From Amphiscolops sp. MND2022 (taxonomy: Eukaryota), in assembly GCA_964187785.1 (NCBI GenBank), contig OZ076409.1, forward strand, positions 17,920,001 through 17,984,000: DNA of 64,000 nucleotides, written 5' to 3'. A program made the translations under genes and the position numbers. The notes under the pieces were generated by a model that had not been told where the DNA came from, did not search any database, and saw only the letters and a program-made list of their open reading frames with translations. Shown in pieces: positions 22,401 through 64,000 of the stretch. How positions within the stretch are numbered: the first letter of the stretch is position 1; the number at the start of each line of letters is the position of its first letter.

Positions 22401-24621
22401 TTTGGATAGGTTAAGGGCTTCAACTTGAGCATAATAAGCGTTCTTTTGTGAAGAGAATTGTTTTTTGAAAGCTTGTACAAAAGCGTGCCAATCTTGTTTA
22501 TAAGTGTCATTTAAACGAATGTACCAACTGAGTGCTGTGCCTGTTAAAGAACATTGTATAAAAGGCACGTGACGGGCGTTCCAAAAATTATTTTCATGTT
22601 CTGATGAAGGTTGTAAACCTAAAGAAAGTGTAACACGTGCCTCAATATGTTGTAAGTATTCTTCAGGTGTATAATTATGATCTAAACCATCATAAGGTTT
22701 AATAGGTTCTGATATCGAAGTAGAAGAGTTGATATATGTTGGGTGTGAAATAGTATTGTGAGATATAGTAGATGGTGGTACTGTGTTGTATGTAGGGTTA
22801 TTCGAGGTATTGGTAAAGGAAGTGGTAGATGTGTTATGAAAGAGGGGGTTAGTTCTAATGGTTGTTGAAGGGGGATTTTGTATTTGAAAATGCGAGTTTT
22901 GTAATGTAGGTGTGATTGTATTAGACGTGTGTTGAGGAGGGAAAGTATTCAACGAATTGGGTCTGTTATTGTTTTCATCTGAGATTGTTGTGTATGACTT
23001 GAGTTTGTTCTTGTAAGGTTGTATGATAATGGATTAGTTAATATGGGTTGTAATGGAGGTCTAGAAAGATGTCTAGAAGTTGTGTAATCGAAAGGTGGAT
23101 TTGAATGAATAGTGTTAATGTTTAAACTAGTTTGTACAATTTGTACTGGACTACTTTGAGCTGGAGTATAAGTTGAAATTTGTATTCCAGGAGTTGATGG
23201 TGGAGTTGGTGTTTGAAAATGGACTGTATTATTGTGTTGTGTATAGTGTTGTGTATTTGAAGAGCCTTGTTGAGGAGAATTATGAGTGTGAATTTGAATT
23301 GAGAATTGAGGTGGAATAGAAGCTGGGTCATAATTTTGACGAGGTGATGCTTGATGCTTGTGTCTGAGATGGCTGCGTAGTATTAGTATGAGATGTGGAT
23401 AAAAGAGAGGTGTTATCTTGAGTTGTACTTAAAGTGTTGTCGTGGTTTTGGTTATTAGTTTCGTCTTGTGTGATTTTGTGGGAAGGAACTTGTATAAGAT
23501 TTGAATCGTTAGTTATTGTATGACTTTGTGTAGTTTGTACTGTTTCTTCAGAAAATTCTGATGCATTCTGTATTGTAGCAATTTCAGAAGGATTCAATTG
23601 TTGTATATCAGAAACTTGTAATAATTGTGGATATAGTGGGTTTAATTGGTGAGGTTCTGGATTTCGAAAAAGTTTAATGAAATCATCTTGCTCTGATTGT
23701 ACTGAATGTTGTCTATTATATTGAGTTACAACATTAGAGTTTGGTTCTTCTGGGAATGTTTCAGGGGAAATGTTAGATGTAATAAAAGGTCTGTTATCTG
23801 ATGTTTCAGAATGTTCAACTAAAAAGGTGTGATCTAGATTTATTTGTTCAAAATAAGTAGTACTAAATGAGGTAAGATACCTGTATTGTAACTGTCTATG
23901 TTCATTTTTTATCATGTATGGTAAGAGTTCTGTTTGTGTTAGTATTTAAGTAAAGTGAATGGGCGCTTGTTGATCTTGTTGTTCCCAAAACAGTTGATAG
24001 TTAAATCTGAAAAACTTTAATAAAAATCGAGAGAAAACTTTGACTTGAGGAATAGTGTCGTCCGTAAGGGTAATATTGTTACAGAATCTGTATTGAAAGT
24101 TTTTTACTCGTAAAATATTTTGTTGTAGCCAATAATGAGGGCTATCATGTCTCTGAATTCTTGTTTCAAGATAAGGGACCTCAAAATAATCAGATTTGTG
24201 TTTCAGATCTTCTAAGTGAGAAGGACGGTGAAGTGGTGTATCTTGGTTTTCATTGAGTTCAATAAGTTTTTGTATGTACGTGAGGAAAACATCTTGTATA
24301 GAAAGTGTAATATTTTGTGGATGGATTGTTCAATAGTATGTTCCAGTACTTATTCATTTAACTGGGTTAAAATATCTTGAAAAGGGTTTTGTGATGATGT
24401 TATTTCAAGTGTTTCATATCGAATGTTATAAAGATAAGAGTCACAATGTTCTCTTGCCAACGGAATAGTATGTATCGTATGGGGTTCTGTTTCAAATGGA
24501 AATGGATTTGTGTACTGAAAGATGATGTTGTTCAGAAAAGGTGTTCATCTTGTTGTTCATCTTGTATAAGAGACCGATTTTGTCTTTCCTCTGTAGATAA
24601 TACAAATGTGGGAGGAAGCTT
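16401..24621 (-). pseudogene. gag-pol polyprotein of giant gypsy copy 1 (many stops and frameshifts)
   Basis: Capsid-like PIKPYDGLD/LTGTALSWY, CCHC knuckle CSYCHRTKHTISAC, RS-rich tract, protease LLDSGAS, RT YIDD, RNase H VDAS, integrase MDTKG/DRGSE/NGLVE and GPY motif. Confidence 0.93.
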
Positions 24622-24636
24622 TATATATTGCTAAAT

Positions 24637-24870
24637 TCAGTTAGTATAATAAGATTGCCATAAAGGATAGATGTACTGGAAAAGAAGATATTTTGTATTA
24701 AATTGAGAGTTATATGGTAAGAGTTGGTCTATGAATACAACTTGTAAGAATATTGTAAGTACTGTACACAGGAAAAGAAGAAATGGGTTATGTATGTATT
24801 GTATAAGAGTATAAAAAGTATAATGAATATTGAGTAGTCCAAAAAGAGGTTGTATCAGACTTGTTAACAT
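24637..24870 (-). CDS. 77-aa hydrophobic upstream ORF of giant gypsy (intact)
   Basis: ATG-to-stop ORF with the same length and 64/77 identity to 49332-49565. Hydrophobic stretch FLLFLCTVLTIFLQVVFI. Confidence 0.55.
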   Translation of the reverse strand: MLTSLIQPLFGLLNIHYTFYTLIQYIHNPFLLFLCTVLTIFLQVVFIDQLLPYNSQFNTKYLLFQYIYPLWQSYYTN

Positions 24871-25018
24871 AGAAAGAAAAAGTTATACCTTGGAATTTTG
24901 GTATAAAAGATATTGAAAATCTGTCAAGAAAAAGTGCAAGACCGGCACCGAGTGCAACAAAGAACCAAAGGCAGACAATGAGCTTAGCTACATTATCTAC
25001 TGAAGGCGACATGTACAA
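24788..25018 (-). CDS. Small upstream ORF with a predicted TM segment, overlapping the 77-aa ORF
   Basis: MSPSVDNVAKLIVCLWFFVALGAGLALFL. The homologue at 49190-49312 has the same N-terminus but an earlier stop. Confidence 0.45.
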   Translation of the reverse strand: MYMSPSVDNVAKLIVCLWFFVALGAGLALFLDRFSISFIPKFQGITFSFYVNKSDTTSFWTTQYSLYFLYSYTIHT

Positions 25019-25684
25019 TAGAGTTCTGTTAAGAGTATGTCAAAAAGTTGTATAAAAAGTTTGGTATAAATGTGTGAAAAATTGAAAGTTATATAAAGTA
25101 TTATTTGATTTATTTGTTATATATATGGTTATTTGCTATGTATTTGGATCCGTAAACTGGTTTTGAAAGAGTTTGGGTGTTGTTTGTACTATATAAGTGA
25201 CAGGAAAGAGAGGTTCTAAAATAGTGTGGTGTAAAAGATATATGTTATATAGGTGTGCCAATTTTAAATTTGATCCAAGCGGCTAGAACCAAAGTATTTT
25301 ACTAGAAGGAATCGCTGGATAGCACTGTAGAAAGGCCAACACGTATCGCACGTCTGCGGTTGGAACGGAAGAATGAGAGAATGCCAACACGAATTCACTC
25401 AGAGTTGGTTGGAACGAAACATTTACTGACAGGAATTACGTTAAGAAACTCAGTCAGAACCAAGAAATGTAACTGACAGGAATTACGTGGAAGGACGTAG
25501 TCAGAACCATAGCAACACGAATCAATTTCTATTAGAAATTGTTTGCAACGTTTGAAGTTATTAACGGTAGGCAATATTGAGAGGTGGAGAAACTGTGTGT
25601 CGAACAAAGAGGTTTCTGATAAGTAAGTCGAGAAAAGGTGTACAAAAGTTGTAAAGTTGTGAAATGAATGGGAGAGAAAGAAGA

Positions 25685-25702
25685 ATTTTCTTGGTCGCAC
25701 CA
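25685..25702 (-). promoter_or_regulatory. Primer binding site of giant gypsy copy 1 (tRNA not assigned)
   Basis: TGGTGCGACCAAGAAAAT two bases after the LTR-terminal CA. Identical in copy 2. Confidence 0.8.
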
Positions 25703-25704
25703 AT

Positions 25705-26125
25705 TGAGCTGTTAAAAAGTTGTAGTGTTGTTTCTTTAGATATTTTATCACAGACATAAGAAGTCTCAAAATTTAACAGCGAAGTCGTCTTTATTTCAAG
25801 TCAGTTTAGCTAGCTAGTCTTGAGTCTAAGTTCTCTGAGATCTCAGTTAGTTCCTTTGGAGAGGAAGACCTTTTGGTGGATTAGATTCTAATTTTTCTCC
25901 GAGTGGATATATTCTATCAAACTAGAGTAGATTTCATTCATTTACATTAATAAGAAAAGACAGTAACAGGATGGATCTGAGAAGCTTGTTACAGGATATA
26001 TTAAGTGAAGTTTCTCCAAAGAGAATTAACTTTCAAATAGAATTACATTTACTAATTACTTGGGTTAGGAGTTCAGACTATTTCAGATTTATCGAATCTT
26101 TGAGGACATGCATCATGGCATCACA
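25705..26125 (-). repeat. 5' LTR of giant gypsy copy 1
   Basis: TG...CA termini, followed by the PBS, with an AATAAA-like signal near the 3' end. Matches 6798-7220. Confidence 0.9.
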
Positions 26126-28054: not shown

Positions 28055-29701
28055 TTATCATTCAAATCATCGGCGGGCATCCATGACAATAAATACACTA
28101 ATTCAGCTTTTAAACACCGGTATCAACGCTGTTTGGACGTGGCGACGGACCGTATTGCGATGTTTAGCTCAACTGATTTTGTCTGATAAACCACCTACCT
28201 AATTATCTCAACTGTGTACTTGACTAACGAATATTTTGTTTACATATTGAAATCGATGTTAAAAATTGATCTCAGGAGCTTCATTAGAATATGGTAAATC
28301 AGAACCAGAAATTAAGTAACTATTTTTTCTAATTCACATGAACATATGAATTGTTTGGATCAAAAAAATGAAATCAATGTGTGTTTGCTGTATAAATAAA
28401 CTTCTTATAGATAAAATTTATTCATTTGTTTCCGAAAGACAATAAAGAACATTGATGAGATACGGCTGACAAATCTCATATAGCCCTTGACAAAAACAAT
28501 GTCTCTTAGCCCCAACAATCGCAAGTATTTCAATCTTCTCAACTGCTTTCGTCCCATTAAAAAATCAGAGTCCAGGGGAAGTTTTCGACTTTTTGACTCC
28601 ATGTTCAGAGTGATATTTGAACAATAATGCCGTATCTCAGGTGTTGGAGAATGAGTGAGTCTGTAAGTTTACTCGAATTTGCTAAGAAATTGTATTTCAT
28701 CTAAATTGCCGTTTTTGGACATCGGGAGCTTGTAGGAAGTCTCAGGTTACTAGAAACTTTCAAACTCTCAACACTGTAAATATTCGAACCAATTGTCATT
28801 CTTTTTAAGTGTTTCACAGTAAGGAACCTCTCATAGTTATCACAAAACTTTTTCAATAGACTAATGTTAGAAACTACACGGTGGTACTATAGATCTAAAG
28901 ACGCCAGTATCATAAGCGAAAACTTTGAAAGCGCATTTTTGTTTGGGACTCACAATCGACAAAATAGTCCCAGGAGCAATAATTTGAGATTTGGATTTGT
29001 ATTACTCACGACATAAGAAAAGTTTTTAAAAATGAGAACAGTTTTAAAATTGAACGAAAATAAAAGTTTAATCCCATGGTAATTTGAGGAAATTTTTTCA
29101 TTTCTTGTACGCATTATCTCAGAACAACTAGTCAAAAAAATCTCTCTTGATTTTTTTTGTAGTTTCCGCACTGTTCTTTACCTTTGATTCAAAGGTACAT
29201 AATTTTCCCTGAGAAAAAAATCAGTAATTGAACTGCATCACCGTTTTGCGGTTGAAATTTTAGGACAAGGCGTTTTAAAAAAATGTGAATTTCAAAAATT
29301 AGACATTCGAAGCAAAAGTACAAGGCTTGTATCTGGCACGTTTTGCTACGAATAGCGGTTTAAATCTATCGCATTATAACTTTCAGAAATTGTCAAAATT
29401 CAAAAGTAGCACAGTTTTGGCTCCACATTTAATATGTAAAATAATCTAGCGAAATGAAGTGTTTTTTGATACACTAGTCTTCATTTCTTCACTCACTCTT
29501 CTGAATGCGTAATTAACGAGAACTGCACGTCAGCACCGATCCGGTGGTCGCACGAGACCAACTAACTAGAATTATGGAATACGAATATAGCATTAGGGTT
29601 ATAAGAGACTACTTATGAACTGCAAAATCGAAATCACTGACCACGGTTCAATAGTTCAGCGGAGTTTGTTTCATTCAAAAAAGGAACTCCGACAAACCTA
29701 C

Positions 29702-30001
29702 CTGTGTAACAGTCGAAAGTTTTTTCGTTTTTACATTCGCTTGGATCACCAGCGCTTCCAAAAATGGACACGATTTTGCAATCGAATGTGGTTGCGGATG
29801 CAATACTGGAAAACTCTGAAGAGGTGATAGCGGTGGACAGAGTGGCGCTGCTTAGTACACCAGAAGCTACAGTAGTGTACGTCGTCGCGCTCTGAGTTTT
29901 GATCATGACGTCATATTTGGTTGGAGCTGGAGTTGGGTTTGTCCAGGTGATAGTGATGCTGCTATCAGTGGACGTAAACAACTGAGTGGCCAATGCAGGT
30001 T
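29702..30001 (-). CDS. FN3-like domain exon
   Basis: tttcAG|AA CCT acceptor and G|GTAGGT donor. 300 nt, phase 1-1. TDSSITITWTNP...KYDV. Confidence 0.87.
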
Positions 30002-30246
30002 CTGAAACGATGTAGACATTTTTATTGAAACCCGATTCGCAAATTTCAATTGGAAAGTTGTAGAACCGTAAAGCATTGAACATTATTAGAGAAATGAACG
30101 TTTCTTTTTGAATTTCGGGAGACTCTAAATCCACACAAAAAGATAAGATAAAGTTAACTTCCACAGAAAATGACTGTGAAAAATTATCAAGTATCAAGTC
30201 CAGATCCGAGTGATCTCTTCATGTTGGAAGTCTAAAACATACTCAC

Positions 30247-30540
30247 TGGTGCAGAAAGTAGCAGTAACTTCATCAGTGCAAGAAATTCCGGTAACAATAG
30301 ACTTTATCGTGACAGTGTAGTCAGTTCCCGCTGTCAGTTCAGTTGCGCCATCTGTAGTGGTGAAAGTGTACTCCAGAGCACTACCGCTGTCGACTTCAGG
30401 TGTGAAAGTATGAGAGCCAAGAGTCACTTCGTACTTGTCGGGGTTAGGAGTCGTCGTAGGGTTGGCCCACGTGACTTTGAAGGATGACGTAGTTTTCACA
30501 AAATTAGCATCCTCAATCAGGTTTTCCGCTTGCTGGGGTT
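30247..30540 (-). CDS. FN3-like domain exon
   Basis: tctcgtAG|AA CCC acceptor and A|GTGAGT donor. 294 nt, phase 1-1. TTSSFKVTWANP...KYEV...LTAGTDYTVTIKS. Confidence 0.92.
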
Positions 30541-30689
30541 CTACGAGAAACATGATACTGTGTAATGCAAGCATGATTGTTTTTGATTTGCAACATTGAA
30601 CGAGGATTAGATCAAGACACAGCTGTTATACACAGCAGACATATTGGATTTAACGACCACGAGTATTCTTTTTTAGTGTCCTTAAAAGG

Positions 30690-30776
30690 AAGATTACTGG
30701 AGTTGTCCCAAGTCACCTTGACAGAAGTTTTATCTTGAGACTCAGAATCAAGTTCCAGATTTGTTGCAGCCAGGGT
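30690..30776 (-). pseudogene. Truncated, degenerate FN3 exon remnant
   Basis: LAATNLELDSESQDKTSVKVTWDN follows a pyrimidine tract plus AG. Similarity is lost after the Trp strand and the acceptor phase is shifted. Confidence 0.55.
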
Positions 30777-31053
30777 CTCAAAAAAGGGAAGGCAAAAGTT
30801 CAAAGATGCATATATCGAGACCTGGAAATACAGAAAGAACCTGGCAAGCACAGTTAAAACTGTGTTTAGGTCTTGAGCCATGTAGTTTCGCTCTAACGCA
30901 AAAATTGACATGTCTCAAATCAATTTGTTTGACTGCAAAAACTTAAGTTGAAGATGAAAAAATTATAATTCACAAAACACGTTCCAGTCTTAAAAAAACA
31001 AACATTCAGTAACTTGAAAGTGAATTACGAACTCCTGTAGTTCTCAAACTCAC

Positions 31054-31335
31054 TTGTGCAGAAAACACCAGAAATTTCATTTGTGCAATCGATACCAGTT
31101 ACCACTGATTGGACTTTCACGGTGTACTCTGTACCAGGGGTCAAAGGTGAAGAAGTTCCGAAGGAGGCTTCTAGAGTGTCTCCATTGGCAATGGGAGAAC
31201 CTTCCGGTGCGTCGTTGAGAAGCAATTGGTATTCAGTAGGGTTTGGAGTACTTGACGGGTTAGCCCACGTAACTTTGAAAGATGTGGCTGTTCTTGATGT
31301 CGTCACTTCTTGCAGAGCAGTTGCTTCTTGCGGTT
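31054..31335 (-). CDS. FN3-like domain exon
   Basis: gacAG|AA CCG acceptor and A|GTGAGT donor. 282 nt, phase 1-1. TATSFKVTWANP...EYQL...LTPGTEYTVKVQS. Confidence 0.92.
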
Positions 31336-32195
31336 CTGTCGCAAGATGGTACTCTCATTTTAAAATGCTTTGCAGCTAATATGTTAACAATGATAACAGC
31401 CAGTATAATGACGGTATTACTGACTGTAATAATCAGTTATAATCCTGTTCGCTTACCAAATGCACCATGTTCTTGTCACATTCTTACGTTTTTTAAATAA
31501 AACAGTTTTCATTAATGCTATCATAATTTTCCATAATTACGCCTGGACACATGTTAGTTTTGAAAACTTTTAACATTCGAGACAACAATTGCATTTACAA
31601 TAAAAAACGATTTTATTGAAGTCTTCACAGAATGATTGCACCACCTTGTGACTCCTCGTTCCAACAAATCATTCACAAGCAGGGACTATTCAGGGTAAAG
31701 AAAGTTCAGGGTAAACATAATTATCATATGTTAATGTCAGAAAAATACAAAATTTTCCGGGAAAAAATTGTTCGAAAGAAGTGCTCAGTGCCAACAATAC
31801 CCAAAGTTGTAATCCTTTAGGCTCGAAAAACTATAGGTTTACAAACTCGAAGCAGTCTAACGAAAACAAGAGCAGCGAACCTGATTTGCAACTATCAAGG
31901 ATATACAATTAGGCAATTGGAAAACCGTCAACGTTCAAACGAATTTTCTCTTTTGCTATATTCCATGATGAGAAAAATGAGTCCCTAAAGATGCTAAATA
32001 AAGTCCCTAAAGTCCCTAAAGTCCCTAAATGAAGCCCCTAAAGGGCGTCTTCTTTTCCAAAACTTTCGCAGAATTTGATTCTATACTCAAAAAAGTTAAC
32101 TTAACATGATTGAAAAACTTCGGCCCGTGTTGACAAACCTTGTATTAAATCCAGATCTAGTGATCTTTTGACGTTTGAAGACTGAAAAAACTTAC

Positions 32196-32489
32196 TAGTG
32201 CAGAAAGTACCGGTTATTTCATTGGTACAAGAAACTCCGGTAACAATAGATTTTATCGTGACAGTGTAGTCAGTTCCCGCTATCAGTTCAGTTGCGCCAT
32301 CTGTAGTGGTGAAAGTGTACTCCAGAGCATCACCGCTGTCGACTTCAGTTGTGAAAGTATGAGAGGCAAGAGTCACTTCGTACTTGTCGGGGTTAGGAGT
32401 CGTCGTAGGGTTGGCCCACGTGACTTTGAAGGATGACGTAGTTTTCACAAAATTAGCATCCTCAATCAGGTTTTCCGCTTGCTGGGGTT
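32196..32489 (-). CDS. FN3-like domain exon (near-identical paralogue of 30247-30540)
   Basis: tctcgtAG|AA CCC acceptor and A|GTAAGT donor. 294 nt, phase 1-1. Confidence 0.92.
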
Positions 32490-32739
32490 CTACGAGAAAC
32501 AATATAATGTGGCATGATAACATGATTGTTTTTACATTGAACGAAGATTCGATCTAAACGCCGATGATTTACCCAGTATACTTGATGAACATAACGACTC
32601 AGAAACAAGAATGCATAGATGAGGAACGGTCGTATGTGCTGAAATTCAATCGATCGCTACCTATTACGTAATATAGCAATTCTCAAAGCTTTTTTTACAT
32701 TAATTGAAAAATTGGTCATCGTTTTTTCTTACAACATTC

Positions 32740-48020: not shown

Positions 48021-48433
48021 TGTGATGCCATGATGCATGTCCTCAAAGATTCTATAAATCTGAAATCCTCTGAACTCCTAACCAAAGTAATTAGTAAATG
48101 TAATCTCATTTGAAAGCTAATTATTCTAGAAGAAACTTCACTTAATATATCCTGTAACAATCTTCTTAGATTCATCCTGTTGCTGTCACAATATTAATTG
48201 ATGAAACCTACCCTAGTTAATAGAATATATCTACTCGGAGAAATTGAGAATTCATCCTGACGATCAGTCTTCTCTCCAGCACTTCAAGAACTGAGATCTC
48301 AGAAATAGATTGTACTTAGAACTAGCTAGCTACAAGGTATAAAGTAAGACGACCATGCTGTTAAAATCATAGACTTCTTATGTCAGTAATAAAACATCTA
48401 AAAGAAATAACACACACGCTTTTTTACAGCTCA
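48021..48433 (+). repeat. 5' LTR of giant gypsy copy 2
   Basis: TGTGATGCC...ACAGCTCA followed by AT and the PBS TGGTGCGACC. AATAAA at 48388. Clearly diverged internally from the copy 1 LTRs. Confidence 0.9.
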
Positions 48434-48435
48434 AT

Positions 48436-48453
48436 TGGTGCGACCAAGAAAAT
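48436..48453 (+). promoter_or_regulatory. Primer binding site of copy 2
   Basis: TGGTGCGACCAAGAAAAT, identical to copy 1. Confidence 0.8.
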
Positions 48454-48735: not shown

Positions 48736-49331
48736 AATTTTTCGTTCCAACCACCTTTAAGTGAATTCGTGTTGGTTTTCTCTTTTTCTTCCGTTCCAAC
48801 CGCAGACGTGCGATACGTGTTGGCTATCTACAGGGCTATCCAGCGATTCCTGCTAGTAAAAATTCTTTGGTTCTAGCCGCTTGGATCAACTTTAAAGTTG
48901 GCACACCTATATAACATATATTTCTTACATAATCTCATTATAACACTTCTTTTTCTCTCTCTCTCTCCTATAGTACAAACATCATACAAAACTCTTTCAA
49001 AACTAGTTTACGGATCCAAATACATAACAATTATAATATATAACAAATATATGATTCAAATACATAACAGTTATATTATATAACAAATATATCAAATATT
49101 TCTTCATCTAACTTTCATTTTTTCATACATTTATATAACACATTTTCATACAACCTCTTTGACATACTCTTAAAAGGACTTTATTGTACATGTCGCCTTC
49201 AGTAGACACTGTAGTTAAACTCATTGTCTGCTTTTGGTTCTTTGTTGCTATAGTTGCCGGTCTTGCACTTTTTCTTGACAAATTCCTAATTTCCTTCATA
49301 CCAAAACTTTAAAGTACAACTTTTTCCTTCC

Positions 49332-49565
49332 ATGTTAACAAGTATAGTACTACCTCTTTTTGGACTGCTTAGTATTTACCACACCTTTTATACACTTATC
49401 CAATATATACAAAATCCATTTCTTCTTTTCATAAGTATAGTACTTACAATTTTCCTACAAGTTGTATTCATAGACCAAATCTTACCATATAATTCACAAT
49501 TCAATACAAAATATCTTCTTTTCCAATACATCTATCCTTTATTGCAAACTTATTATACTAACTAA
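49332..49565 (+). CDS. 77-aa hydrophobic upstream ORF (intact)
   Basis: Counterpart of 24637-24870 with the same start and stop and mostly conservative substitutions. Confidence 0.55.
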   Translation: MLTSIVLPLFGLLSIYHTFYTLIQYIQNPFLLFISIVLTIFLQVVFIDQILPYNSQFNTKYLLFQYIYPLLQTYYTN

Positions 49566-49580
49566 ACTTTACACCATATA

Positions 49581-52500
49581 ATGCTTCCTACTCCATTTAC
49601 ATTAACTACAGAAAAAAGACAAAATCGATCTCTCATACAAGATGTAACACCTTTTCTAAACAACATCATCTTTCAGTACACAAATCCACTTCCATTCGAA
49701 ACTGAACCCCATACAGTACATACTATTCCATTGGCACGAGAACATTGTGATTCTTATCTTTGTTACATTCGATATAAAACACTAGAAATAACATCATCAC
49801 AAACCCCTTTTCAAATTATTTTTAACCCAGTTAAAGGAATAAGTTCTGGTACATTTTATAGAGCCATTCACCCACAAAATATTACACTTTCTATACAAGA
49901 TGTTTTCAATACATACATGCTAAAATTTATTGAATTCAACGAAAACCAAGATACACCACTTTATCGTTCCTCTCACTTAGAAGAACTAAAACACAAATCT
50001 GAATTTTTCGAGGTCCCTGAACTTGACACAAGAATTCAAAGACATGATAATCCTCATTACTGGCTACAACAAGATATCTTACAGATAAAAAACTTTCAAT
50101 ACAGATTCTTCAATAACATTATTCTTACGGATGACACTATTCCCCAAGTCAAAATTTTTACCCATTTCCTATTAAAATTTTTCAAATTTAACTATCAACT
50201 ACTCTGGGAACAAAAAGATCAACAAGCCTACATTAACTTCCTCAAATATTAACACCTACAGAACTCTTACCATACATCATAGAGAATGAACATAAACATT
50301 TACAATACAGAGATCTTACATCACTTAATATTGCACATTTTGAACAAATAAACTTAGACCACAACTTTTAGTTGAAAATTCTGAAACATCAGATAACCGA
50401 CCTTTTACTACATCTGATACTTCTTTCGAAACAACTCCTGAAGCACAAACTTCAAATGTTGAACTTTTATACACTAGACAACATTCAGAACAATCTGAAC
50501 AAGAAGACTATCACTTTTCAAAATACAGAACCTCATCAAGAAGACCCACCATATCCACCATTATCACAAATATCCAATATACAACAAATGAATCCCTCTG
50601 AAACAGCTACAATTCAAAATACATCAGAATTTTCAGAAGAAACTGTACACAATACACAAAGTTTTACAATAACTGACGACACAAATCTTATACAAATTCC
50701 TACCCACACTATCACACAAAATGAATTTAATAACCAAAACCAAGACAACACTTTAAATACAAATCACGAAAATACCTTTTTTTTATCTACCACCCATACT
50801 AATATTACACAACCCTCTCAGACACAAGTATCACCTCGTCGAAATTATGATCCACCTTCTATTCCATCTCAATTCTCAACTCAGACTCATACCCATAATT
50901 CTCCTCAACAAAGCTCTTCAAAACAACATATTCCACAAAACACTAATACTGTACATTTTCAAACACCAACCCCACCATCACCTTCTGAAACACAAACTTC
51001 AACTTATACTCCAGCTCAAACTAACCCAGTACAAACTACACAACCTACCTTAAACATTAATACCATTCATTCCAACCCATCCTTTAATTACACCACTGCC
51101 AGAAAACTTTCTCGACCTCCATTACAAACTATATTAACTAATCCATTATCGTACAATCTTACAAGTACTAATCTAAGTAATACACGACCATCTCAGATAA
51201 CATACAACAGATCCAATTCATTAAATACTCTCTCTTCTCAACATACGTCTAATACAATCACACCTACACTGCAAACTTCTCAATTCCAAATACAAAATCC
51301 TCCTAAAACAACAATTAGAACCAACCCTCACTTCCACAACACCTCTACTACTTCCTTAACTAATATTTCAAATAATCCCACTAATAATACAGCACCACCA
51401 TCTACCATATCTCATAATACTATGTCACACTCAACATATATTAACTCTTCTACTTCTATATCAGAACCCATTAAACCTTTTGATGGACTAGATCATAATT
51501 ATACACCTGAAGAATATTTACAACATATTGAGGCACGTGTCACATTTTCCTTAGGTTTACAACCTACATCAGAACATGAATATAAAATTTGGCACGCTCC
51601 TCGCATGGCCTTCATACAATGCTCTTTAACAGGTACAGCACTTAGTTGGTACATTCGTTTAAATGACACCTATAAACACGATTGGCACGCTTTTGTACAA
51701 GCTTTCAAAAAACAATTTTCCTTACAAAGAATGCTCATTATGCTCAAGTTGAAGCCCTTAATTTAACCAAGAAAGATAATGAAACAGTACGTCATTTTGC
51801 ACTCAAAGTTCAACAGCTGGTTGAAAAAGGCTGGTGTAATGAGAATGCATCCACTATCAACCTTAAATGTAATGAAATCTTTACAAAAGGACTTCCAAAA
51901 AATCTTAAAGACTTTGCAAACAAAATACAAGTGTAACACACTTCCACAGTTTTAGAACCTTCGATTCCTTTTCATAGATTAGTAAAACTTGTTGACGCTG
52001 AAGATATTGCAAACGACAAAATCAGAACACATGATCTTGCACTTGAAATTAATAGTTTTACAAAACAATTGAACACTCAAACTCTTGACCCTTCATCTCA
52101 AGAACAACTTATGTTTACACAACCCAAAGATCCAAATAACAAAAATAAACCTGCATATAAGAAATATTGCTCATACTGTCATAGAACAAATCATTCATTT
52201 CTGCTTGTTTCAAAAAACAACGAGATGATGAAGACAAACGAGAAGCATATGCTCGATCTAAATCTCCACAAAAATCTTTTGTACAACACTTCCGTTCTCC
52301 CTCCAATGATAACACTATGATAATCGATACCGAAGTCGAAGTACCACACGAGACAACTCTTACAATAAAACTTATTCACAAAATCGATACCGTTCTACAT
52401 CTAGAGATAGAGATAGATTTAGTTATGACAAAAGTACTACTCCTCCATACTACTCTAGATCACGATATGATACATACAAACGTGATTCCCGGTCCTACCG

Positions 52501-55500
52501 TTCTCCCTACAGATCTTCATACAGATCCCCTTATCGACACAACTCTCGTCCTAGATACAGATCACGTTCCTATTCCAGAGACAACAAATTCACAAAATAT
52601 ACAAATTCTTACAGACCACCTTCAAGACCAAGAGATTCTCGATTTTCTAGATCTCGCTCATACTCCAATTCCAGAAACAAAACTAATATGGTACAACAAC
52701 AAGACCAATCTGACCCTATAAAATTTGAAGTACATATGTATCACCCAACAGCAGTGGCAAACGCTGTAACACCCACAAGTTGGTTTTATACATTATATGT
52801 TCATACACCATCAAGTATAGTACAAAGTGATAACCCATCTAGATTGGAAATTGCAATCCTTCTAGATAGCGGTGCTTCCATTTCTGTATTAAATTACCCA
52901 ACATACAAAACCCTTACGGAACTCTTAGATATCAGATCAAATCACACTTCTGATGTTGGACCAACTCGAAAATCCAAAACATTAACCGTTGCAAACCAAA
53001 CTGAAGTTCCAATTTAACACTATGCAAATATAATTTTAAACACTACTATTGATGAAAACTCCCGTTACTTTTCAGTACCTTTTGCAGTAGCTGATATCAA
53101 ATACAACATTCTTGGCACACCATTCTTTGAAGACAATATACAAAACATAAACATACAAGACTTTACACTGGAATTCAAATACCATTCAAAAACACACCCA
53201 AATTATGCAAAGTTCACAACACTCCTATCTAAAGATTTTCCATATTTCTCATACATCTACAGAATTAACTCAAAAACTCAAATACGTCTAAAACCCAAGT
53301 CTTCAAAAATTGCACACTTTCCAATAAAAAATTATCTTAACCTCCATTTTACAACTACACCACAAAACTACATCTTCCTTTCAGTACCTCATACCTATTT
53401 TGCTACCAAATTTCGTACAAATTTCAATTTTTTGGAAGTATTCACTGATGACAAACCAGATATTTGTGCAACTATCATCCAAAACACCTCAAAACATGTT
53501 GCAACACTACCCACAGGACTTATTGGATATATTGAAGTTCCAATTACTATTGAAAAACCCAAATTCTTTCAAGTTAATGATATTAACACTTTAATACATA
53601 ATGTTACTTATACCTATCATTCTGAAATGACTGAACCACTTCCACAAACTAACTATATTGTACAACATGATGATCCTACAACCCCTCCTCCTCAATTTTC
53701 CTTACATCAACTTTATATGACAAACGATGACATTCCAAGTCAAACTTCTCCTTTATATAACGTTCAGCCTACTTCTCATACTTCTGAAAAACGCATTTTT
53801 CCTTCCCTACCATACACTTCTGACAATCTGAAATTCATTATTAAATTTAACTTCCAATTTTCTGACCTTACAGACACCGAATACATTACTCTTTGCAGTA
53901 AGTTACTCAAGTATAAAACATGTTATGCAACTCATAAAAACGATGTTGGAAAAATTTCAACACCCTTCCGTATTCGACTTAAACCAAATGCTCAACTTAT
54001 GACACAACGTCCTTCTAAAGTCCCAATTCACTACCGAGACAAACTCAATGTACTTCTCAAAGAACTCGAAAAATATAACTTTATTAAACAAATTGGTTCC
54101 TCTCCACAAGACAAACCTGTTTATGGCACAACTTATTTAAACCCCTTCATTATAATCCCCAAGGGAGATACCATAAAATGTGTATTAGACGCTCGACATC
54201 TTAACTCCAATACAGAACAATCCGATGAATCTTGGCCTATTGAATCTCTCGCTCCACAATTAGCACGCGCAAATAAAAACTACAAATCTGCTATTGACCT
54301 TATGTATGCCTATGCACATACACCTCTTGATGAAGACACTATTAAACTTACCAGTTTCTCCTCAGGAGATAAACTTTTCGCTTTCATCCGAGGCTTTTAT
54401 GGTCTCAAAGGACTCCCAAACTTCTTTACAAAACAAATGTCTACCTTCTTTAAAACTCGTATACAACAAGGTTTTGCTCTTGTCTACATTGACGATATAT
54501 TACTTTTATCTGACTCTAAAGAACACATGTTCCAACTCATAGAACAATTACATATTATCAGTACAAAAACACAATCTTAAACTAGCCCCTGAAAAATCCT
54601 TTTTCATGCTTCTTAAAGTCAAATTTCTTGGACATGAAATTGGTTACAATACAATTAAACCAATTCATTCGAAAATTGCAGCTATCCATAAAATTCCTTC
54701 TCCAACTGGCAAAGTTGCCCTAATGAGTTTCATTGGCGCACTCAATTTTTACACCAAATTTATTGAAAAACTACATATTAACCTCAAACCATTTTACAAT
54801 CTTTTACATGAGAACACTCCTTGGAAATGGACTGACGAACACGACAGTCTTTTCCAAAAACTTAAAATGTCTCTCACTTCTGAAACAGAACTTACAATAC
54901 CAAATACAAAACATCCATTTTTCATTACAGTTGACGCTTCCCTTATTGGATTAGGCGCTGTCTTATTCCAATTAAATGAACTAAACAAAATGAAAGTTAT
55001 ATCTTACAACTCTCGTATACTCAACCCTCAAGAACAAAAACTCTCCACACTTGATAGAGAGCTCCTTGGTATAGTACATGCTCTCCAAATCTATGAATTT
55101 CTTATCATTGGTTCTCCTCATCCAATACACATTTTTACTGATCACAAACCTTTATTACATTGTTTTACAAAGAAAGGTAACCTTAGTCCTCGATTTTACA
55201 GAGCTCAAATGCAAATAACAAAATTCTCAAAACTCAAAATAATTCACACCCCTGGAAAAAATCTCTCTGTTGCTGACATGTTAAGTCGCTCTTTTACAAA
55301 AACTGAACTACAACTCAACCAATTAAAACATAAACAGCTTCCACCACAAATTGATTTTGCACTTCTACAAAATAACACTCTTAAACCTGTACATTACTTA
55401 ATTAAACATGAAGAAACTTTACCTCGCCAAAAAAATGACTCTCACCACGTCCTTGCTGATTATGGTACAGACCAATTCTCTATTCGTATCAATGATAAAA

Positions 55501-57736
55501 GAAATGACATTGTTGACAAACCGTTACAATCTTTCTCATTCAAATCTATAACTCCTTTTCAAACCAAAATCAAAATACCTATAAAAAGAACAATAAAACC
55601 CTTCATCAACAATCTCTCTTACTCAATGATACTGACGTTACAAGCGATGACGAAGATCATATATATACCAGAATTCCAAAACCTGACTCCTCTTTCTTAC
55701 ATGACACAACATTACAAACAGAAAACTATTCTACTCTTAACAAACTAACCCCAAAAACCTCACAAAAATCTGTTTCCGCAATAAATGTACAATCAAATTT
55801 ACCATCTCTCACACATTCTCCACAGATTATACCTTTTTATGATACATCAATTTTCAAGTACAAAAACTATTTTCAAGGTTTCTTCCTCCCAGATGACTAC
55901 TCATTAGACATAACAACACTTCAACAACAACAATCCCAAGACCCGGTTCTCAGAACTATTCATTCTTGGATTGTAAAAAATGAAAAACCTGAATCTCTAA
56001 CACCATTTATTACTGGCACTCTTTTTCTACATGCTTATTACAAACGATTTTCACAACTTTTTATAGATGACTCCACAAATCTTAGTAGCCTTTATACTAA
56101 ACACCCTACTACTCAAAACCAATCTTTTACTCCAGATTTTGTACACGCTACTATTCGAATCTGTCTTCCATTCCGACTATTCAAAACTGTTTTTAACAAA
56201 CTTCATGAACACTCTCATACAGGTATCAAATTTACCTACAATACATTTGCACAGTATTACTACATTCCATTTGTTGAAAAATGGCTTTCCATGAAAATTC
56301 AAACTGCTCCTACAAAATCCTTCTCAGAACACGCTCCATCTTTCAATTACCGTATTTCAATGGACACTAAAGGACCTATTAATCCTCCTTCCCACAACAA
56401 ATCATATATACATGTTATAATCGATGCTTTCAGTCACTTTGTTGTTACAGTACCCATTAAATCAAACAACGCAAAGACTGCTATCAAAACTCTTCTACAC
56501 CATTGGATTATTAAATTTGGACCACCCATATATCTTGTTACTGATCGTGGATCAGAATGTGTCAATAAAGAAATGGCACAACTCCGTACACTAATGGGAA
56601 TTCGTCATTCTCCTAGAACAGCTTACTCTCCTTGGACAAATGGCCTTGTCGAAGTACAAATTAGAAATCTTGGTACACATCTACGAATGTTCCCACATGA
56701 CAGACCTAAAGATTGGGCATTCCAAGTCCATATGTACGCTTATGCACATAATTCACAACCACTTTCAGAACTCAATATTTCTCCTCATGAAATTGTTTTT
56801 TACACCAGACCCAGAATACCCCTTACTTTTGATCTAAATCTTAATAGAGACACCTCTAAAACATGTATTTCACGTTATTGCTCCCAACTTCCAGAACATT
56901 CTCACTATGATAAATCAGATCTCAACCCATTTTTTAATCGAACTCTTTCAAAACCCATTCCACAATGGTTTCTCGCTGTAGAAACTGCTATGTTACAAAT
57001 TGATTCTACAGTATATGAAAACACTTTACGAAAAATCAATTCACACGCATACATTACAAAAACCTATCACGAAGGTAAACCACTTCCTACTGGCACCTTT
57101 GTTTTAAAACGAAATTTTACGCAAGTACATTTTTCTGACAAACAAAAACCCCTTCGGATTGGACCATACAAAATTATTGATAGACTATCAGATGTTACAT
57201 ATGAACTACTTGCACAAGACGGCTCTACAATACATGTTCATAGAAATCATTTAATTCCATATTATCCAAAAGAACAACTCTTATATCCACATTTGCGTAG
57301 TTTCATGCGCTTTTCAGACACAACTCAATTCCAAATTCCACAACCTACCAAATATGCAAACAGTGATTCTTCCCCATTCAACTCAGACGAATCTTTATCA
57401 GATGAAGATTCTCAAACATTCATGACACCATCCACAACAGATAATTCGTCTCAAACATTTGTAACACCAACATCACTTAGTACGTCCAATCAAAATACAC
57501 CATCTACACCATCCAATGACAAGTCTTTAACGTCCTCAACCAATGACAACTCCTTATATAGACATATTATTAACACCCCTCACACTAATATCCCTAGTGA
57601 CAGATCAAGACACTCTTCTAATACCCAAACAACTTCACTTCCTCCTCTAATTGACAGAACTACTAAAACTACTTATAAACTCCGACAACAACCCAAATTA
57701 GATTATAGACTTTTTATTACACCCTCAAAACTGTAA
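49581..57736 (+). pseudogene. gag-pol polyprotein of copy 2 (reconstructs to about 2700 codons, disrupted)
   Basis: ATG at 49581, capsid-like domain, CCHC knuckle, RS tract, LLDSGAS, YIDD, VDAS, integrase core and RIGPYKI. Lesions checked (for example near 50240 vs 23950) differ between the copies, which implies one ancestral frame. Confidence 0.93.
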
Positions 57737-57846
57737 TGTCAACATTCTATCCACTGGCTCACTCAAAACTAGTCACTACAGCTGAATGAAAAATAGTCAA
57801 TAACAAGTTATCTCAAAGATAACCTGTTGAAGACATTTCAAGAATC

Positions 57847-59061
57847 CTGGATTCTTCCTCTGAATAATCTCCATCAGCTCCAAGTATTCCTTCTACTCCT
57901 GAATCTTCAGTATCAAACACTACAAACTCTAGTAATGTAACTCCTACTACTCCTTCTAAAAGACCAAGATCATACGTTTCTGAAACAACTTCTTCCTCAC
58001 TCCTTCATAGACCACCTATAACTGAAATACCTATAAACACTCGTACTCAACAAACCGCTATTAATGCTCCTATAGTACACATACCAAACCCAGAAAGTGT
58101 TGAACAATACGTAAACTACAAACATCCTACAGCCATCAAAACTGTTAGACTACAACCTCAACTTAATCTTGTACAAATCCCTGATACTGAATATACAAAA
58201 TTACCTTCATTGAAATTACCATCAGAACTTAGTACTACTTCTTCAAAACTTTATCCACCATTAAAACCTCTCCGAAAACCTTCTACATCACTCTCAAATC
58301 TCTTAGACAATACTTCAGAATTCGCTCCATCACAAGACACAAGTTCACTTTTTGTACCTCAACATAGATATAATCTTCGCGACCTCCCTTCACGTAGACT
58401 CAGTACAGACACTTCAACACTCAACTTTTCCGCTCTTTCTAGCAACTCTGCACTACGATTTCTACGACAACACGCTCAACCATTGTCCTCTGACACACAC
58501 TCTTCAGAACTCTTTCAATCTCCTTATTTTACTTCTGGTTTTGACACCGCTTCATTACTTTTTTCTAATGCCCAGACTGCGTTTTTATCAGGAGACCTTT
58601 TGTCACAAGTAGTAATCCCTACTCCTGTTCTTGCACATATTAGACTACCCGAATACTATACTGCAGAACATTCTAGTCCTCCAAATCCTAATTTTGCTGA
58701 TTATCCACTTCGAGTTGACGGAATAACAATCTACGACCCACAAAACGACCATCGATTTCCAATTCTTGCAGAACGTTTCATTAATAACAACGACCTCTTA
58801 TCTCACAAACGCAACGAAACAGAATTAAAACGCCTTCAGACACCCAATCTAGAACTTAAATTTGAAGTTAAAGTCGAATTTCAAGGATTAATTCCACACC
58901 CAATATTTCACAATTCTAAAATAGAACATAAAATCTCTCCTGCTCCTTTTGAAGTAGTACATATTGAATTTGAACGCGATCTTAATATACCTACTATCAC
59001 ATATGGCAGAATCGTCTTCTGTAACCCATATTCAGGTCTCAAATATACAACATCTTTTTAA
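57847..59061 (+). CDS. Orphan ORF of about 400 codons between pol and env with no in-frame ATG and a PSAP motif
   Basis: Frame open from 57868 to 59061 (read manually upstream of the listed TTG at 58210), with one stop at 57865. PSAP at 57871-57882. Overlaps the env start. Confidence 0.65.
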
Positions 59062-61666
59062 ACTCTACACAACCTTTTACATAACAAATCTGATATTCTA
59101 TTTACATTTATTTACCTTCACCTTTTCAATACCCATAACACCCTCTGACACAGAGAACTATCTTCCATCGGATGATCCAAATATTACAAATCTCATGGTT
59201 TCTCATTATGACTGTGCAAAACAGCATAATTTGAGACAATCTAACTTACTTAATGTAAAACAATGCACTGAAGCTCCTTCTGACATTAAACATGCAAGTG
59301 TTAAAGCCCGTGTATATGTCCGAGCAGAAGCTAAACGCATCAAAGCTTTTAAATGTGTTGCTTATGCAAAGAAAGAAAGGAAAATATGCTTTCAAGGTTC
59401 CGTAAAATACCGTCGTGTTGATAGAACGGTATGGAATCATAATACATTACCGCTTCCTGTTACTCTTGATCCATTAGAATGTAAAAACATTATAGGACAT
59501 TTAAATGGTACAAATGATAAAATATTGAACAACCTCCACTACAATAAAACTTTCACACTTTTAGAAGACCATTATTTTCAAGAACGATTGGAACAATATC
59601 AAACTCCTTTCACTGTATTCCAATTAAACAAAGTGTACACAGGTACATTTACATTTATGCCTGCTGATAAAAACTGGATATATGACCCTACTCGAAACCC
59701 TTATCTTAATTGTCCTGCTCATCATCAATTCCAAGTCAACCTAGTTAGTTGGCGATTAGAAATTTCTGATAATAGATCGACATACATTACCCTGCTATTT
59801 TGCAGATGGTTTTTATAAACTCACAACGAAAACCCCTTTTACTATTGTTTGGTTCAATGATGACTTTTGCCTAATTTGCACATTACAAGACTTCATTGGT
59901 CGTATGACAAAAATTGAAGATAGATACTGGATTGAAACAGACTTTTTTGTACATTCTCCACACTCAATAAAACCCAAAACAACTTCTTGTATCAAAGGTA
60001 CAGAACATCCATATGTTTATGCTCCTCATACACAACATCCAAATAACCCAAGTCTTTCAAGATTTGAAGTTTTTCCTACGGCACAAACTTTTTGTGGTAA
60101 ACCAGACCCTCTTTATTCTACACAATAATCAGACCTTTTTGTTACATACACTGAAAGTTTCAATATGCATACAGGACAACCCAACCCTCATTCTATGATT
60201 GATGAATATATTTCTGGTAAAACAGTATTGGACACTTCAAATAACAAATTTATATTTCCTGCATTAAATGTTTCAAACAACTTTGCTAACATTGACTATG
60301 ACGCACATATAAACACCAAAATAGATTACACTATTAACCATGTTTTCAGATCAATGACAGTACAAGAACTAAATACTCTTCATACAATATGTGAATTAGA
60401 ACGAAACCAACTTCTTACAATACTCGCAATGTCAGTACAAAATCCTAAACTTGCTGGTTTTCTTTTAACCGGTAATAGAAGTAATTTCTTGTACGTTGAA
60501 GGCTTACCCGCCTGGCTCTATGACTGCCCTCATTTTTTATCCTTTATATAAAGCTGATAGATGCTTTGACCGTATACCTATCCATTTTAGAGATCCCTTA
60601 ATGTACGTTGATCCAATTACAAGACGAACTTATGACTATGCTACACCAATTACATGTGATAATAATCCACGTAACATTATTGAACTATATCCTGATTCCG
60701 ATGATCAAGATTTTTACATTCTTGGACCTGAACCTATTAAACACAATCCTCCACTAATGTTTACACCTTCACAAATCAAAACTACAATACGCCCTAACAC
60801 TTTTACAGCTCAAGATGCTGGTATATATTCTAATGCAGAACTCGACCAATTTTGGAATCGTATTTTATTTTCCAAACATTCTGATTCTACACTTCAATTA
60901 CTAGGCAAAGCTCTTAGCTATTCTTTCATTTCATCTATTACTCCTAATTATGATGCAGATTCCCCTCAAGATTCTGGTAATTCTATAATACATTTTGTAT
61001 AGGACTACATGATAAACTCTTGAATTTAACTCCTCTTTTTACACCTACATGGTTTTCAGATGCTTTTATTGCACTTTTTGGATATCCTTGTTATATTCTC
61101 ACACATTGTGGTATATACTTTTCTACATTCCTTTTTGTACAAGCTACTCTTACACTCATTGTCAAACTTTACAAAACAATATCTATTAAATATAATCTAA
61201 AAAATAATATTATTTTATTTAGCTCTATCGCACATGGTTTTTTTAATGTTCTTACAGCACGAATGGTCAATGACCTCAATGAGACTCAAAACAAAAAACC
61301 CAAAAGTACACTTATAAAAGCCAAATCCTTAGATAATTTTATTGACACTTCAACAAATTTAATTAATCACTCTACTGATGTTACTTCCCCTCCACCTTCC
61401 TATACTAAACGTCCTAACAAAATTCAATTTCCTAAATTTAACTTGTTTCCGAAACGACACCACAATTCTCACCAAAAAACTGCTTCACTTCCTTTCTCTC
61501 CTGTTCAACATCCTCCACTTCCTAATTATACTCATAAAAACTTTCATCCAAATGACAATCTAACTACTCAACATGACACTTTAACAATTCTGTCACCTCT
61601 ACTACGGATACACCAATTAAAATCTATTCACGGATAAACTATCCTTTTCCTCCTCCATCTTCTTGA
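59003..61666 (+). pseudogene. env: Env-like class III fusogen-type glycoprotein, first tandem copy (disrupted)
   Basis: ATG at 59003, signal-like hydrophobic segment, YDC, CELER..QNP, CFDRIPI..YVDPITR..ITC, TM segment at about 61050-61165 and PPSY in the tail. 38-bp deletion near 59770 and a stop near 60126. Confidence 0.82.
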
Positions 61667-61695
61667 ACACTCTCTCAGTTTTGTGCAAGCTCTCT

Positions 61696-64000
61696 TATAC
61701 AACATCTTTTTAAACTCTACACAACCTTTTACATTACAAATCTGATATTCTATTTACATTTATTTACCTTCACCTTTTCAATACCCATAACACCCTCTGA
61801 CACAGAGAACTATCTTCCATCGGATGATCCAAATATTACAAATCTCATGGTTTCTCATTATGACTGTGCAAAACAGCATAATTTGAGACAATCTAACTTA
61901 CTTAATGTAAAACAATGCACTGAAGCTCCTTCTGACATTACACATGCAAGTGTTAAAGCCCGTGTATATGTCCGAGCAAAAGCTAAACGCATCAAAGCTT
62001 TTAAATGTGTTGCTTATGCAAAGAAAGAAAGGAAAATATGCTTTCAAGGTTCCGTAAGATACCGTCGTGTTGATAGAACGGTATGGAATCATAATACATT
62101 ACCGCTTCCTGTTACTCTTGATCCATTAGAATGTAAAAACATTATAGGACATTTAAATGGTACAAATGATAAAATATTGAACAACCTCCACTACAATAAA
62201 ACTTTCACACTTTTAGAAGACCATTATTTTCAAGAACGATTAGAACAATATCAAACTCCTTTCACTGTATTCCAATTAAACAAAATGTACACAGGTACAT
62301 TTACATTTATGCCTGCTGATAAAAACTGGATATATGACCCTACTCGAAACCCTTATCTTAACTGTCCTGCTCATCATCAATTCGAAGTCAACCTAGTTAG
62401 TTGGCGATTAGAAATTTCTGAAGTCGAACTTACGTATGATGACACATCCAATGACATGATAATAGATCGACATACATTACCCTGCTATTTTGCAGATGGT
62501 TTTTGTAAACTCACAACGAAAACCCCTTCGGTTCAATGATGACTATTTCCTAATTTGCACATTACAAGACTTCATTGGTCGTATGACAAAAATTGAAGAT
62601 AGATACTGGATTGAAACAGACTTTTTTGTACATTCTCCACACTCAATAAAACCCAAAACAACTTTTTGTATCAAAGGTACAGAACATCCATATGTTTATG
62701 CTCCTCATACACAACATCCAAATAACCCAAGTCTTTCAAGATTTGAAGTTTTTCCTACGGCACAAACTTTTTGTGGTAAACCAGACCCTCTTTATTCTAC
62801 ACAATATTCAGACCTTTTTGTTACATACACTGAAAGTTTCAATATGCATACAGGACAACCCAACCCTCATTCTATGATTGATGAATATATTTCTGGTAAA
62901 ACAGTATTGGACACTTCAAATAACAAATTTATATTTCCTGCATTAAATGTTTCAAACAACTTTGCTAACATTGACTATGACGCACATATAAACACCAAAA
63001 TAGATTACACTATTAACCATGTTTTCAGATCAATGACAGTACAAGAACTAAATACACTTCATACAATATGTGAATTAGAACGAAACCAACTTCTTACAAT
63101 ACTCGCAATGTCAGTACAAAATCCTCAACTTGCTGGTTTTCTTTTAACCGGTAATAGAAGTAATTTCTTGTACGTTGAAGGCTTACAAACCTGGCTCTAT
63201 GACTGCCCTCATTTTTTATCTCCTTTATATAAAGCTGATAGATGCTTTGACCGTATACCTATCCTTTTTAGAGATCCCTTAGTGTACGTTGATCCAATTA
63301 CAAGACAAACTTATGACTATGCTACAACAATTACATGTGATAATAATCAACGTAACATTATTGAACTATATCCTGATTCCGATGATCAAGATTTTTACAT
63401 TCTTGGACCTGAACCTATTAAACACAAACCTCCACTAATGTTTACACCAAAACTGAATCAAAACTACAATACGCCCTAACACTTTTACAGCTCAAGATGC
63501 TGGTATAAATTCTAATGCAGAACTCGACCAATTTTGGAATCGTATTTTATTTTCCAAACATTCTGATTCTACACTTCAATTACTAGGCAAAGCTCTTAGC
63601 TATTCTTTAATTTCATCTAATACTCCTAATTATGATGCAGATTCCCCTCAAGATTCTGGTAAACCTTATAATACATTACGTATAGGACTACATGATAAAC
63701 TCTTGAATTTAACTCCTCTTTTTACACCTACATGGTTTTCAGATGCTCTTATTGCACTTTTTGGATATCCTTGTTATATTCTCACACATTGTGGTATATA
63801 CTTTTCTACATTCCTTTTTGTACAAGCTACTCTTACACTCATTGTCAAACTTTACAAAACAATATCCATTAAATATAATCCAAAAAAATAATATTATTTT
63901 ATTTAGCTCTATCGCACATGGTTTTTTTAATGTTCTTACAGCACGAATGGTCAATGACCTCAATGAGACTCAAAACAAAAAACCCAAAAGTACACTTTTA
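61696..64000 (+). pseudogene. env: Tandem duplicate of env lacking the start codon (truncated by the window edge)
   Basis: 61696 onward repeats 59044 onward. It carries its own frameshifts near 62528 and 63450. Confidence 0.88.

Follow-up and report, generated by a model that had tools for sequence, protein, structure and literature searches.

A conserved Met-less gene between pol and env of a Ty3/gypsy-type element, with a probable CUG start and late-domain-type motifs

The window analysed, a 64,000-nt stretch of the 1.07-Gb genome of Amphiscolops sp. MND2022 (contig OZ076409.1; coordinates without a locus name refer to the window), contains two decayed, inverted copies of one LTR element. 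Copy 1 occupies 6795-26125 on the minus strand, from LTR to LTR, and its LTRs (26125-25703 and 7220-6795) are 95.5% identical. Copy 2 lies on the plus strand. Its 415-nt 5' LTR (48021-48435) is preceded by a 4-nt target-site duplication and adjoined by a primer-binding-site-like TGG motif (48436-48445, +), and its 3' LTR, which shows 97.8% identity to the 5' LTR, falls outside the window (L031). Downstream lie gag-pro-pol (49581-57736, +), encoding Gag, protease, RT, RNase H and integrase and frameshifted in this copy, a frame here called ORF X (57847-59061, +), env (59003-61637, +), which is broken here and starts with an ATG inside ORF X, overlapping its final 19 codons, and a tandem duplicate of env (61696-64000, +) 97-99% identical to 59044-61695. 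Env matches the F-type family PF24664 over the cut-off (E 1.5e-24) and in family A carries hydrophobic segments near both ends.

Young copies of the element are about 18.15 kb long, with LTRs 99.8% identical and gag-pro-pol in a single frame. They comprise, in order, a 416-nt LTR, a 1.1-kb leader, gag-pro-pol, ORF X, an env gene some 900 codons long, two more frames (449 and 179 codons), and the second LTR. Target-site duplications of 4 nt were found in 3 of 3 copies, and among solved structures the RT is nearest to that of Ty3 (E 3.6e-37; foamy virus Pol, E 1e-17). By its paired LTRs, duplications, domain order and RT affinity the element is classified from sequence as a Ty3/gypsy LTR retrotransposon. 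The last 150 residues of the X protein, used as a protein query, gave 5708 first-look candidates; 150 of these were scored and all 150 matched, so the element is present in at least hundreds of copies. Four families (A to D) were distinguished. Family B was reached via a search for other env genes, and families C (decayed) and D (young) via protein searches. Loci within one family are related copies, and the independent units are the four families. The RTs of families A, B and D are 74-80% identical, and an internal tree comprised 7 rows.

Other frames accompany these genes. Upstream of gag the leader contains two or three short hydrophobic frames starting with ATG (about 40 and 78 codons; 49190-49312 and 49332-49565, +). 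They are conserved between families A and B (leaders of L034, L070, L100 and L102) and possibly encode small membrane proteins or regulators of gag translation. The Gag N-terminal domain (49581-50252, +) comprises 250 conserved residues with no Gly2 and no Pfam match. About 200 extra residues, also with no Pfam match, lie between protease and RT (L034:6044-6700), where rotifer elements carry a dUTPase. The two frames after env (L035:4888-6237 and 6567-7106; about 9950-12300 on the minus strand of the window; also L071 and L105) have no Pfam match either, and the first of them (about 440 codons) is homologous between A and B. Between the two copies the window holds host exons with fibronectin type III repeats (29634-32553, -), and at 1752-5000 (-) a remnant of another LTR element with a DUF5641 domain, which we take to be of the BEL/Pao type; both point to an animal host.

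The earlier note, made from the letters of the window alone, had drawn attention to a Met-less frame between pol and env. The interval 57868-59061 is indeed open over 397 codons with no Met. The gene does not start at 57868: it comprises 404 codons from 57847, and a stop (57865-57867) interrupts it six codons after a CTG in the window copy. This stop is private, none of the 55 other family-A loci having one at that codon. ORF X of copy 1 (15073-16285, -, the 3' end being approximate; CTG 16285-16283) is interrupted at codons 176 and 248 and leaves the frame in a later frameshift. The overall length of ORF X is 404-446 codons, and in copies other than the window copy 404-432 codons when counted from the CTG. 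Of the 30 nearest loci, 12 have an intact X and 7 an env whose first 404 codons are open.

The view that ORF X is a real coding gene was borne out by substitution rates. Over the whole of X dN/dS was 0.11-0.28 in 10/10 family-A pairs, 0.11 in family B and 0.30 in family D. Between A subfamilies the N-terminal half gave 0.14-0.47 and the C-terminal part 0.05-0.18, the latter similar to the integrase core (0.07-0.11), and the first 30 codons after the CTG gave 0.21 and 0.26. The family B frame between pol and env, 453-520 codons without Met, is homologous to X (E about 1e-33). ORF X is thus a conserved protein-coding gene under purifying selection, situated between pol and env. X is not a duplicate of Gag. 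A divergent group of X proteins (P0327-like) has only 31-35% matches in this genome and may therefore come from another genome.

The frame starts at an A-N-N-CTG-GAT site (57844-57852, +; CTG 57847-57849) at 80 of 83 loci from the four families. In family A (56 loci) the CTG is present in 55, A at -3 in all 56 and GAT as the next codon in 53; elsewhere the CTG was found at 10/10 B, 2/3 C and 13/14 D loci, the 14th D locus being without the region. L091 (region absent) and L074 (deleted) were left out of some start-site counts, and the mis-cut L040 row out of one alignment. CTG accounts for 0.6-3.3% of the other Leu codons in gag-pol and env. It marks the 5' edge of conservation in ORF X; upstream of it an in-frame stop can lie only 2 codons off, and the spacing from the pol stop shifts by non-multiples of three. 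Positions -2 and -1 are variable (TC, AT, AC, CC, TA) while A at -3 is kept, a pattern characteristic of a Kozak context rather than of a fixed DNA site. The context found, A at -3 together with G, A and U at +4, +5 and +6, equals the best one reported for CUG starts (PMC3542737, PMC524250). An enhancing hairpin about 14 nt downstream is an optional feature of non-AUG starts; no stable one was found downstream of the CUG, as 7/7 sequences were within 1.5 SD of their shuffles.

Read-through or frameshifting from pol into X was considered and rejected, since the gap in family A (80-126 nt) varies in phase and contains stops and that in family B exceeds 300 nt. In family D (L096:763-921) a second near-cognate codon, ATT, with A at -3 and GAT next, lies 41 codons upstream of the CTG; these 41 codons are open and moderately conserved (dN/dS 0.44), and an N-terminally extended form of X is possible in this family.

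An in-frame CTG in both copies (57847 and 16285) had been recorded in the earlier note, which left two routes of expression side by side, non-AUG initiation and a spliced mRNA. The second route would make X a second coding exon with an AUG supplied by an upstream exon, the CTG-GAT being kept for some other reason. The elements invoked for it in copy 1, CACTAAC at 16336 and TTTTTCCAG at 16298-16290, are present, the CTG has an AG 4 nt ahead of it in both window copies and 5 nt ahead in family D, and the open upstream codons of family D could be read in the same way. As a conserved branch point and acceptor, however, they failed: an AG within 12 nt of the CTG occurs at 12/56 family-A loci, leaving 44/56 without it, at 0/37 loci in three groups including the youngest subfamilies, and nowhere in family B, and the phase differs between A and D. 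A YAGTC motif (57769-57776, +) between the pol stop and ORF X is more regular (53/56 family-A loci), but an in-frame stop separates it from the CTG in 52/53 of these, so that it is unable to fuse an exon to X. An invariant CTG and a depletion of ATG in all frames, described below, would moreover be unneeded in a spliced exon, and we regard this route as very improbable. The YAGTC motif, which presumably resembles the TCAGT initiator, may serve as an acceptor for a non-coding leader or as the initiator of an internal promoter.

Between the CTG and the env ATG, a corridor of about 1.17-1.35 kb, ATG is nearly absent from all frames. Six subfamily representatives (7.6 kb) contain 8 ATGs, as compared with 68-110 occurrences of each of the five ATG anagrams in the same 7.6 kb and 171 ATGs in equal lengths of env. 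Synonymous-codon resampling gave P values for ATG depletion of 0.002-0.07 in 11/11 A loci, 0.005-0.024 in 4/4 B loci and 0.005 in the single D locus (1/1), and none of the 16 control blocks was depleted. In family B the first ATG to follow the CTG is that of env, in a strong context a few bases past the X stop. In family A the env ATG overlaps the end of X and has a weaker context with a pyrimidine at -3, and 2-4 out-of-frame ATGs are retained in the corridor. An out-of-frame ATG followed by TAA (start-stop; 57935-57940, +) is found at +88 in most family-A loci, and the corridor ATGs that remain in A418, a young copy, lead into frames just 1 and 2 codons long.

The corridor is poor in G (8-9%), which thins out ATG, and the low-complexity part of Gag also has 1-3 Met per 400 codons, so the Met-less frame could in principle be an untranslated by-product of composition. 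Against this stand the dN/dS of 0.11-0.30, the homologous frames, whose proteins in A, B and D are 35-48% identical, the confident prediction of a folded domain, and the fact that anagrams of stop codons are common out of frame in the corridor while ATG is not; we give the compositional explanation practically no weight. The conserved CTG and the near-absence of ATG together point to initiation at CUG with leaky scanning to env, which we hold to be probable, and hence to a subgenomic RNA that would carry the two genes X and env. Non-AUG initiation, as proposed in the earlier note, is thereby supported at that CTG by its conservation in four families and by the ATG-depleted corridor. The AUG-free corridor itself is new beyond that note, as is the YNLR motif described below, and the four families show an unusually clean evolutionary signature of CUG initiation combined with leaky scanning.

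Non-AUG starts combined with leaky scanning are described for ORFs I-III of rice tungro bacilliform virus, respirovirus C', MLV glyco-Gag and aquareovirus FAST (PMC3542737). As in X, a near-cognate start in a strong context is followed there by a long AUG-free stretch, of about 895 nt in rice tungro virus; the corridor of X, in contrast, is 1.17-1.35 kb long, belongs to a retrotransposon and leads to env. The Gypsy-type Tor3b/4b elements of Oikopleura produce env RNA from an internal promoter between pol and env (PMC4402516), but before env they have a spacer in which no gene is described, at the place where the present element has a gene.

The N-terminal half of X is predicted to be disordered, with Ser, Thr and Pro making up 44-46% of the first 250 residues. 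PSAP, a TSG101-type late-domain motif near the N-terminus noticed at the outset, was confirmed in both copies (57871-57882, +, residues 9-12; 16261-16250 in copy 1), and so was TPSKRPR after it (57949-57969, +; 16183-16163). PSAP is conserved in part: it occurs in 32/40 family-A proteins spanning the site, at 12/13 D loci and at one of three loci of the decayed family C, but any P[ST]AP was found in only 1/60 proteins of family B and PSAP is absent from A subfamily L038, so that it is not essential. The caution that PSAP could arise by chance in a P/S-rich tract is fair for a single sequence, as 3% of shuffles of the N-terminal half contain it, yet in families A, C and D the motif is met again at 9-11 residues from the CTG. 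TPSKRPR, which we assume to comprise a CDK site and an NLS-like signal, is confined to family A (39/47 proteins), and KRPR is absent from family B. It is followed by a conserved island, PTAIK (58126-58140, +), recognized by sequence conservation, and by LYPPL (58249-58263, +), a YPxL or ALIX-type late-domain motif that reads LYPRL in B and C and LYPKL in D. [LIMV]YPxL was counted in 77/99 A and 40/52 B proteins and is also present in C and D, although the IYPxL of some subfamilies departs from strict LYPxL. RYNLR (58366-58380, +) contains an acidic-patch core motif like that of foamy-virus Gag and lamin A; YxLR is found in 105/112 A and 41/50 B proteins, is doubled in C and present in D, and in each of the four families YNLR is kept better than any other motif of the disordered half. 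Per shuffled sequence the three short motifs arise by chance at rates of 3%, 1-2% and 0.3-0.4%.

PT/SAP binds TSG101 and YPxL binds ALIX (PMC8402826), and both the chromatin-binding sequence of foamy Gag and the acidic-patch motif of lamin A have YNLR as their core (PMC12125541, PMC12527912). By sequence, then, X carries late-domain-type motifs in a disordered region, YPxL in four families and PSAP in three, together with a Tyr-x-Leu-Arg anchor in a disordered segment for which nucleosome binding is predicted. The matrix-like character suggested in the earlier note was not upheld: residue 2 is Asp, so there is no N-terminal Gly, and no hydrophobic segment was found, the maximal 19-residue hydropathy being 0.8-1.0. 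Its budding-adaptor part gained from LYPxL as a second late-domain-type motif and from the fact that most Gags have no late domains. Neither P[ST]AP nor YPxL was found in Gag in 7 copies scanned from families A, B and D, and PPxY occurs in Gag only in the Arg/Ser-rich end of two A subfamilies. PPxY is also present in the 150-190 residue Env tail, in every tail examined from A, B and D (e.g. residue 810 of the L035 env), and may represent a NEDD4-type late domain. In A, B and D integrase terminates in Y[KN][LF]R (57676-57736, + in the window), a second candidate acidic-patch tether, with which the tether on X may be redundant.

The C-terminal half of X contains a conserved domain of 136 aa (58651-59058, +), predicted to form a hairpin, two helices and five long strands. 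A model built for the L035 orthologue from 77 sequences reached pLDDT 75 and pTM 0.53, while an earlier fold from 13 sequences (pLDDT 40) was unusable. Searched with this model, Foldseek gave a best E of 0.52 in the PDB, with 38-residue overlaps on eIF5A/EF-P, and a best E of 0.10 in a viral library; VIA fold searches gave a best Z of 4.2 with an rmsd of 3.5 over 66 residues, and Z 4.0. No match was significant (Z at most 4.2, no Foldseek E below 0.1) and no matrix fold was among them; neither a new nor a known fold is thereby shown. ORF X matched no Pfam family, no PDB sequence and nothing at 0.9 or above in the ESM Atlas, and homologue searches returned unnamed proteins only among the 150 listed of 323 representative matches, the proteins covered being those within set length limits. 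The C-terminal domain is a candidate for an unclassified fold, and X a member of an apparently unclassified protein family.

A reading that would accommodate these features, and that we consider evenly poised between right and wrong, is that X is started at CUG on the predicted X-env mRNA and acts as a particle-associated adaptor recruiting ESCRT in place of Gag. A subgenomic RNA would have its start or a splice junction 50-400 nt upstream of the CTG; of the ribosomes scanning it, a minority would start at CUG and make X, and the rest would scan about 1.2-1.35 kb to the env AUG. X and Env would thereby be made together in a set ratio, the scanning step being a probable part of the scheme. The disordered N-terminal half of X would then bind TSG101 and ALIX and the conserved C-terminal half Gag or the Env tail, for which the chances appear about equal either way. 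More doubtfully, and by analogy with MLV p12 and foamy Gag, YNLR would fasten the core of the particle to nucleosomes after entry. No membrane anchor is present in X, so its link to the particle is assumed. On this scheme the budding and chromatin-tether signals of an invertebrate Ty3/gypsy lineage would have moved off Gag onto a protein of a new family, dosed against Env by the CUG and the corridor, a proposition that we put forward tentatively. If true, a genome of 18 kb with five long genes, resembling that of a complex retrovirus, would have evolved outside retroviruses, with a tegument-like adaptor between the capsid and an F-type envelope.

YNLR and the basic KRPR would fit a nuclear protein as well as a virion protein. 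The main rival explanation accordingly keeps the same CUG start and leaky scanning and makes X a nuclear regulator, either a chromatin-bound transactivator or an export factor for genomic RNA, comparable to foamy virus Tas, whose late-domain-like motifs would be incidental or would control its turnover. The small amount of protein expected from a CUG start would be in keeping with a regulator, YNLR is better kept than the other motifs of the disordered half, TPSKRPR is frequent in family A, and the richness in Ser, Thr and Pro agrees with such a role. CERV of Cer1, a regulatory accessory protein made from a spliced RNA, is a precedent in an invertebrate Gypsy-type element (PMC10309623). A nuclear function would leave the coupling to env translation unexplained, however, and against it stand PSAP at residues 9-11 in three families and LYPxL in four, in an element whose Gag is without such motifs; KRPR is missing from family B and no nucleic-acid-binding fold was matched. 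We therefore consider a nuclear regulator rather unlikely.

The same motifs and the same coupling to env would also be expected of an accessory factor that is co-translated with Env and acts outside the particle, in the manner of Vpu or Nef, using TSG101 and ALIX for the sorting of Env or for the delivery of a restriction factor or receptor of the host to multivesicular bodies. Paramyxovirus C proteins, some of them non-AUG-started, do bind ALIX (PMC3602193, PMC3542737). Such a factor would, however, leave Gag in families B and D without a budding signal; X has no transmembrane or lipid-anchor signal, and the strong purifying selection on its C-terminal domain is unlike a host arms race. This role appears improbable to us.

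For the preferred reading of X as a particle-associated adaptor, the closest parallels are found in two retroviral proteins. MLV p12 and the MA-p12 region resemble the N-terminal half of X, being disordered and combining late domains (PSAP, LYPAL, PPPY) with a nucleosome tether (PMC8402826, PMC6021111), but p12 is cut from Gag, while X is encoded separately, has a start of its own and carries a folded domain at its C-terminus, and no sequence homology was found between them. Prototype foamy virus Gag has PSAP and YNLR in one protein, as X does (PMC3705263, PMC12125541), and, according to these sources, it lacks a membrane-targeting domain and its budding depends on Env; PSAP is not present in the bovine, equine and feline foamy Gags (PMC3705263). 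In foamy viruses both motifs are located in Gag, whereas here they lie in a separate gene upstream of env, in an element with an RT closer to Ty3. The element as a whole resembles the F-type ENV errantiviruses in its common LTRs, gag-pol-env order, F-type fusion protein and many near-identical copies (PMC13524379). It differs from them, as they are described in that source, in its 18-kb length, the single gag-pro-pol frame, the extra 400-codon gene between pol and env, the two more genes after env and the small hydrophobic leader frames; for the pol bridge of F-type errantiviruses, the same source describes an RNase H domain of 'mini' or 'pseudo' type (PMC13524379). We thus liken X to parts of MLV p12 and foamy Gag in its motifs and the element to an F-type errantivirus, by analogy only, as X proved homologous to none of them in the tests run.

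LTR elements with additional frames between pol and env have been noted (PMC6431247), and varied third frames occur in rotifer elements (PMC5408684). In the portion of the literature covered, no description was found of ORF X or of a CUG-started retrotransposon gene coupled to env. The survey of Chary and Hayashi limited the POL-ENV distance to at most 1000 nt and the whole to 10 kb (PMC13524379), so that the 18-kb layout with ORF X would probably be missed by it. ORF X exemplifies a class of retroelement genes that would be missed both by AUG-based annotation and by the distance filters of a recent survey. According to a review, whether ESCRT is used by errantiviruses has yet to be learned (PMC3383448); the ORF X lineage offers named, conserved candidate budding motifs that can be tested as peptides.

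No homologue of ORF X was found at six other env-bearing loci of the genome. At least four other F-type env lineages without ORF X are present (L060-L064, L069), several of them with a pol-env gap of 3-5 kb and extra frames after env, and one frame of L064 (7939-8622) is likewise free of Met.
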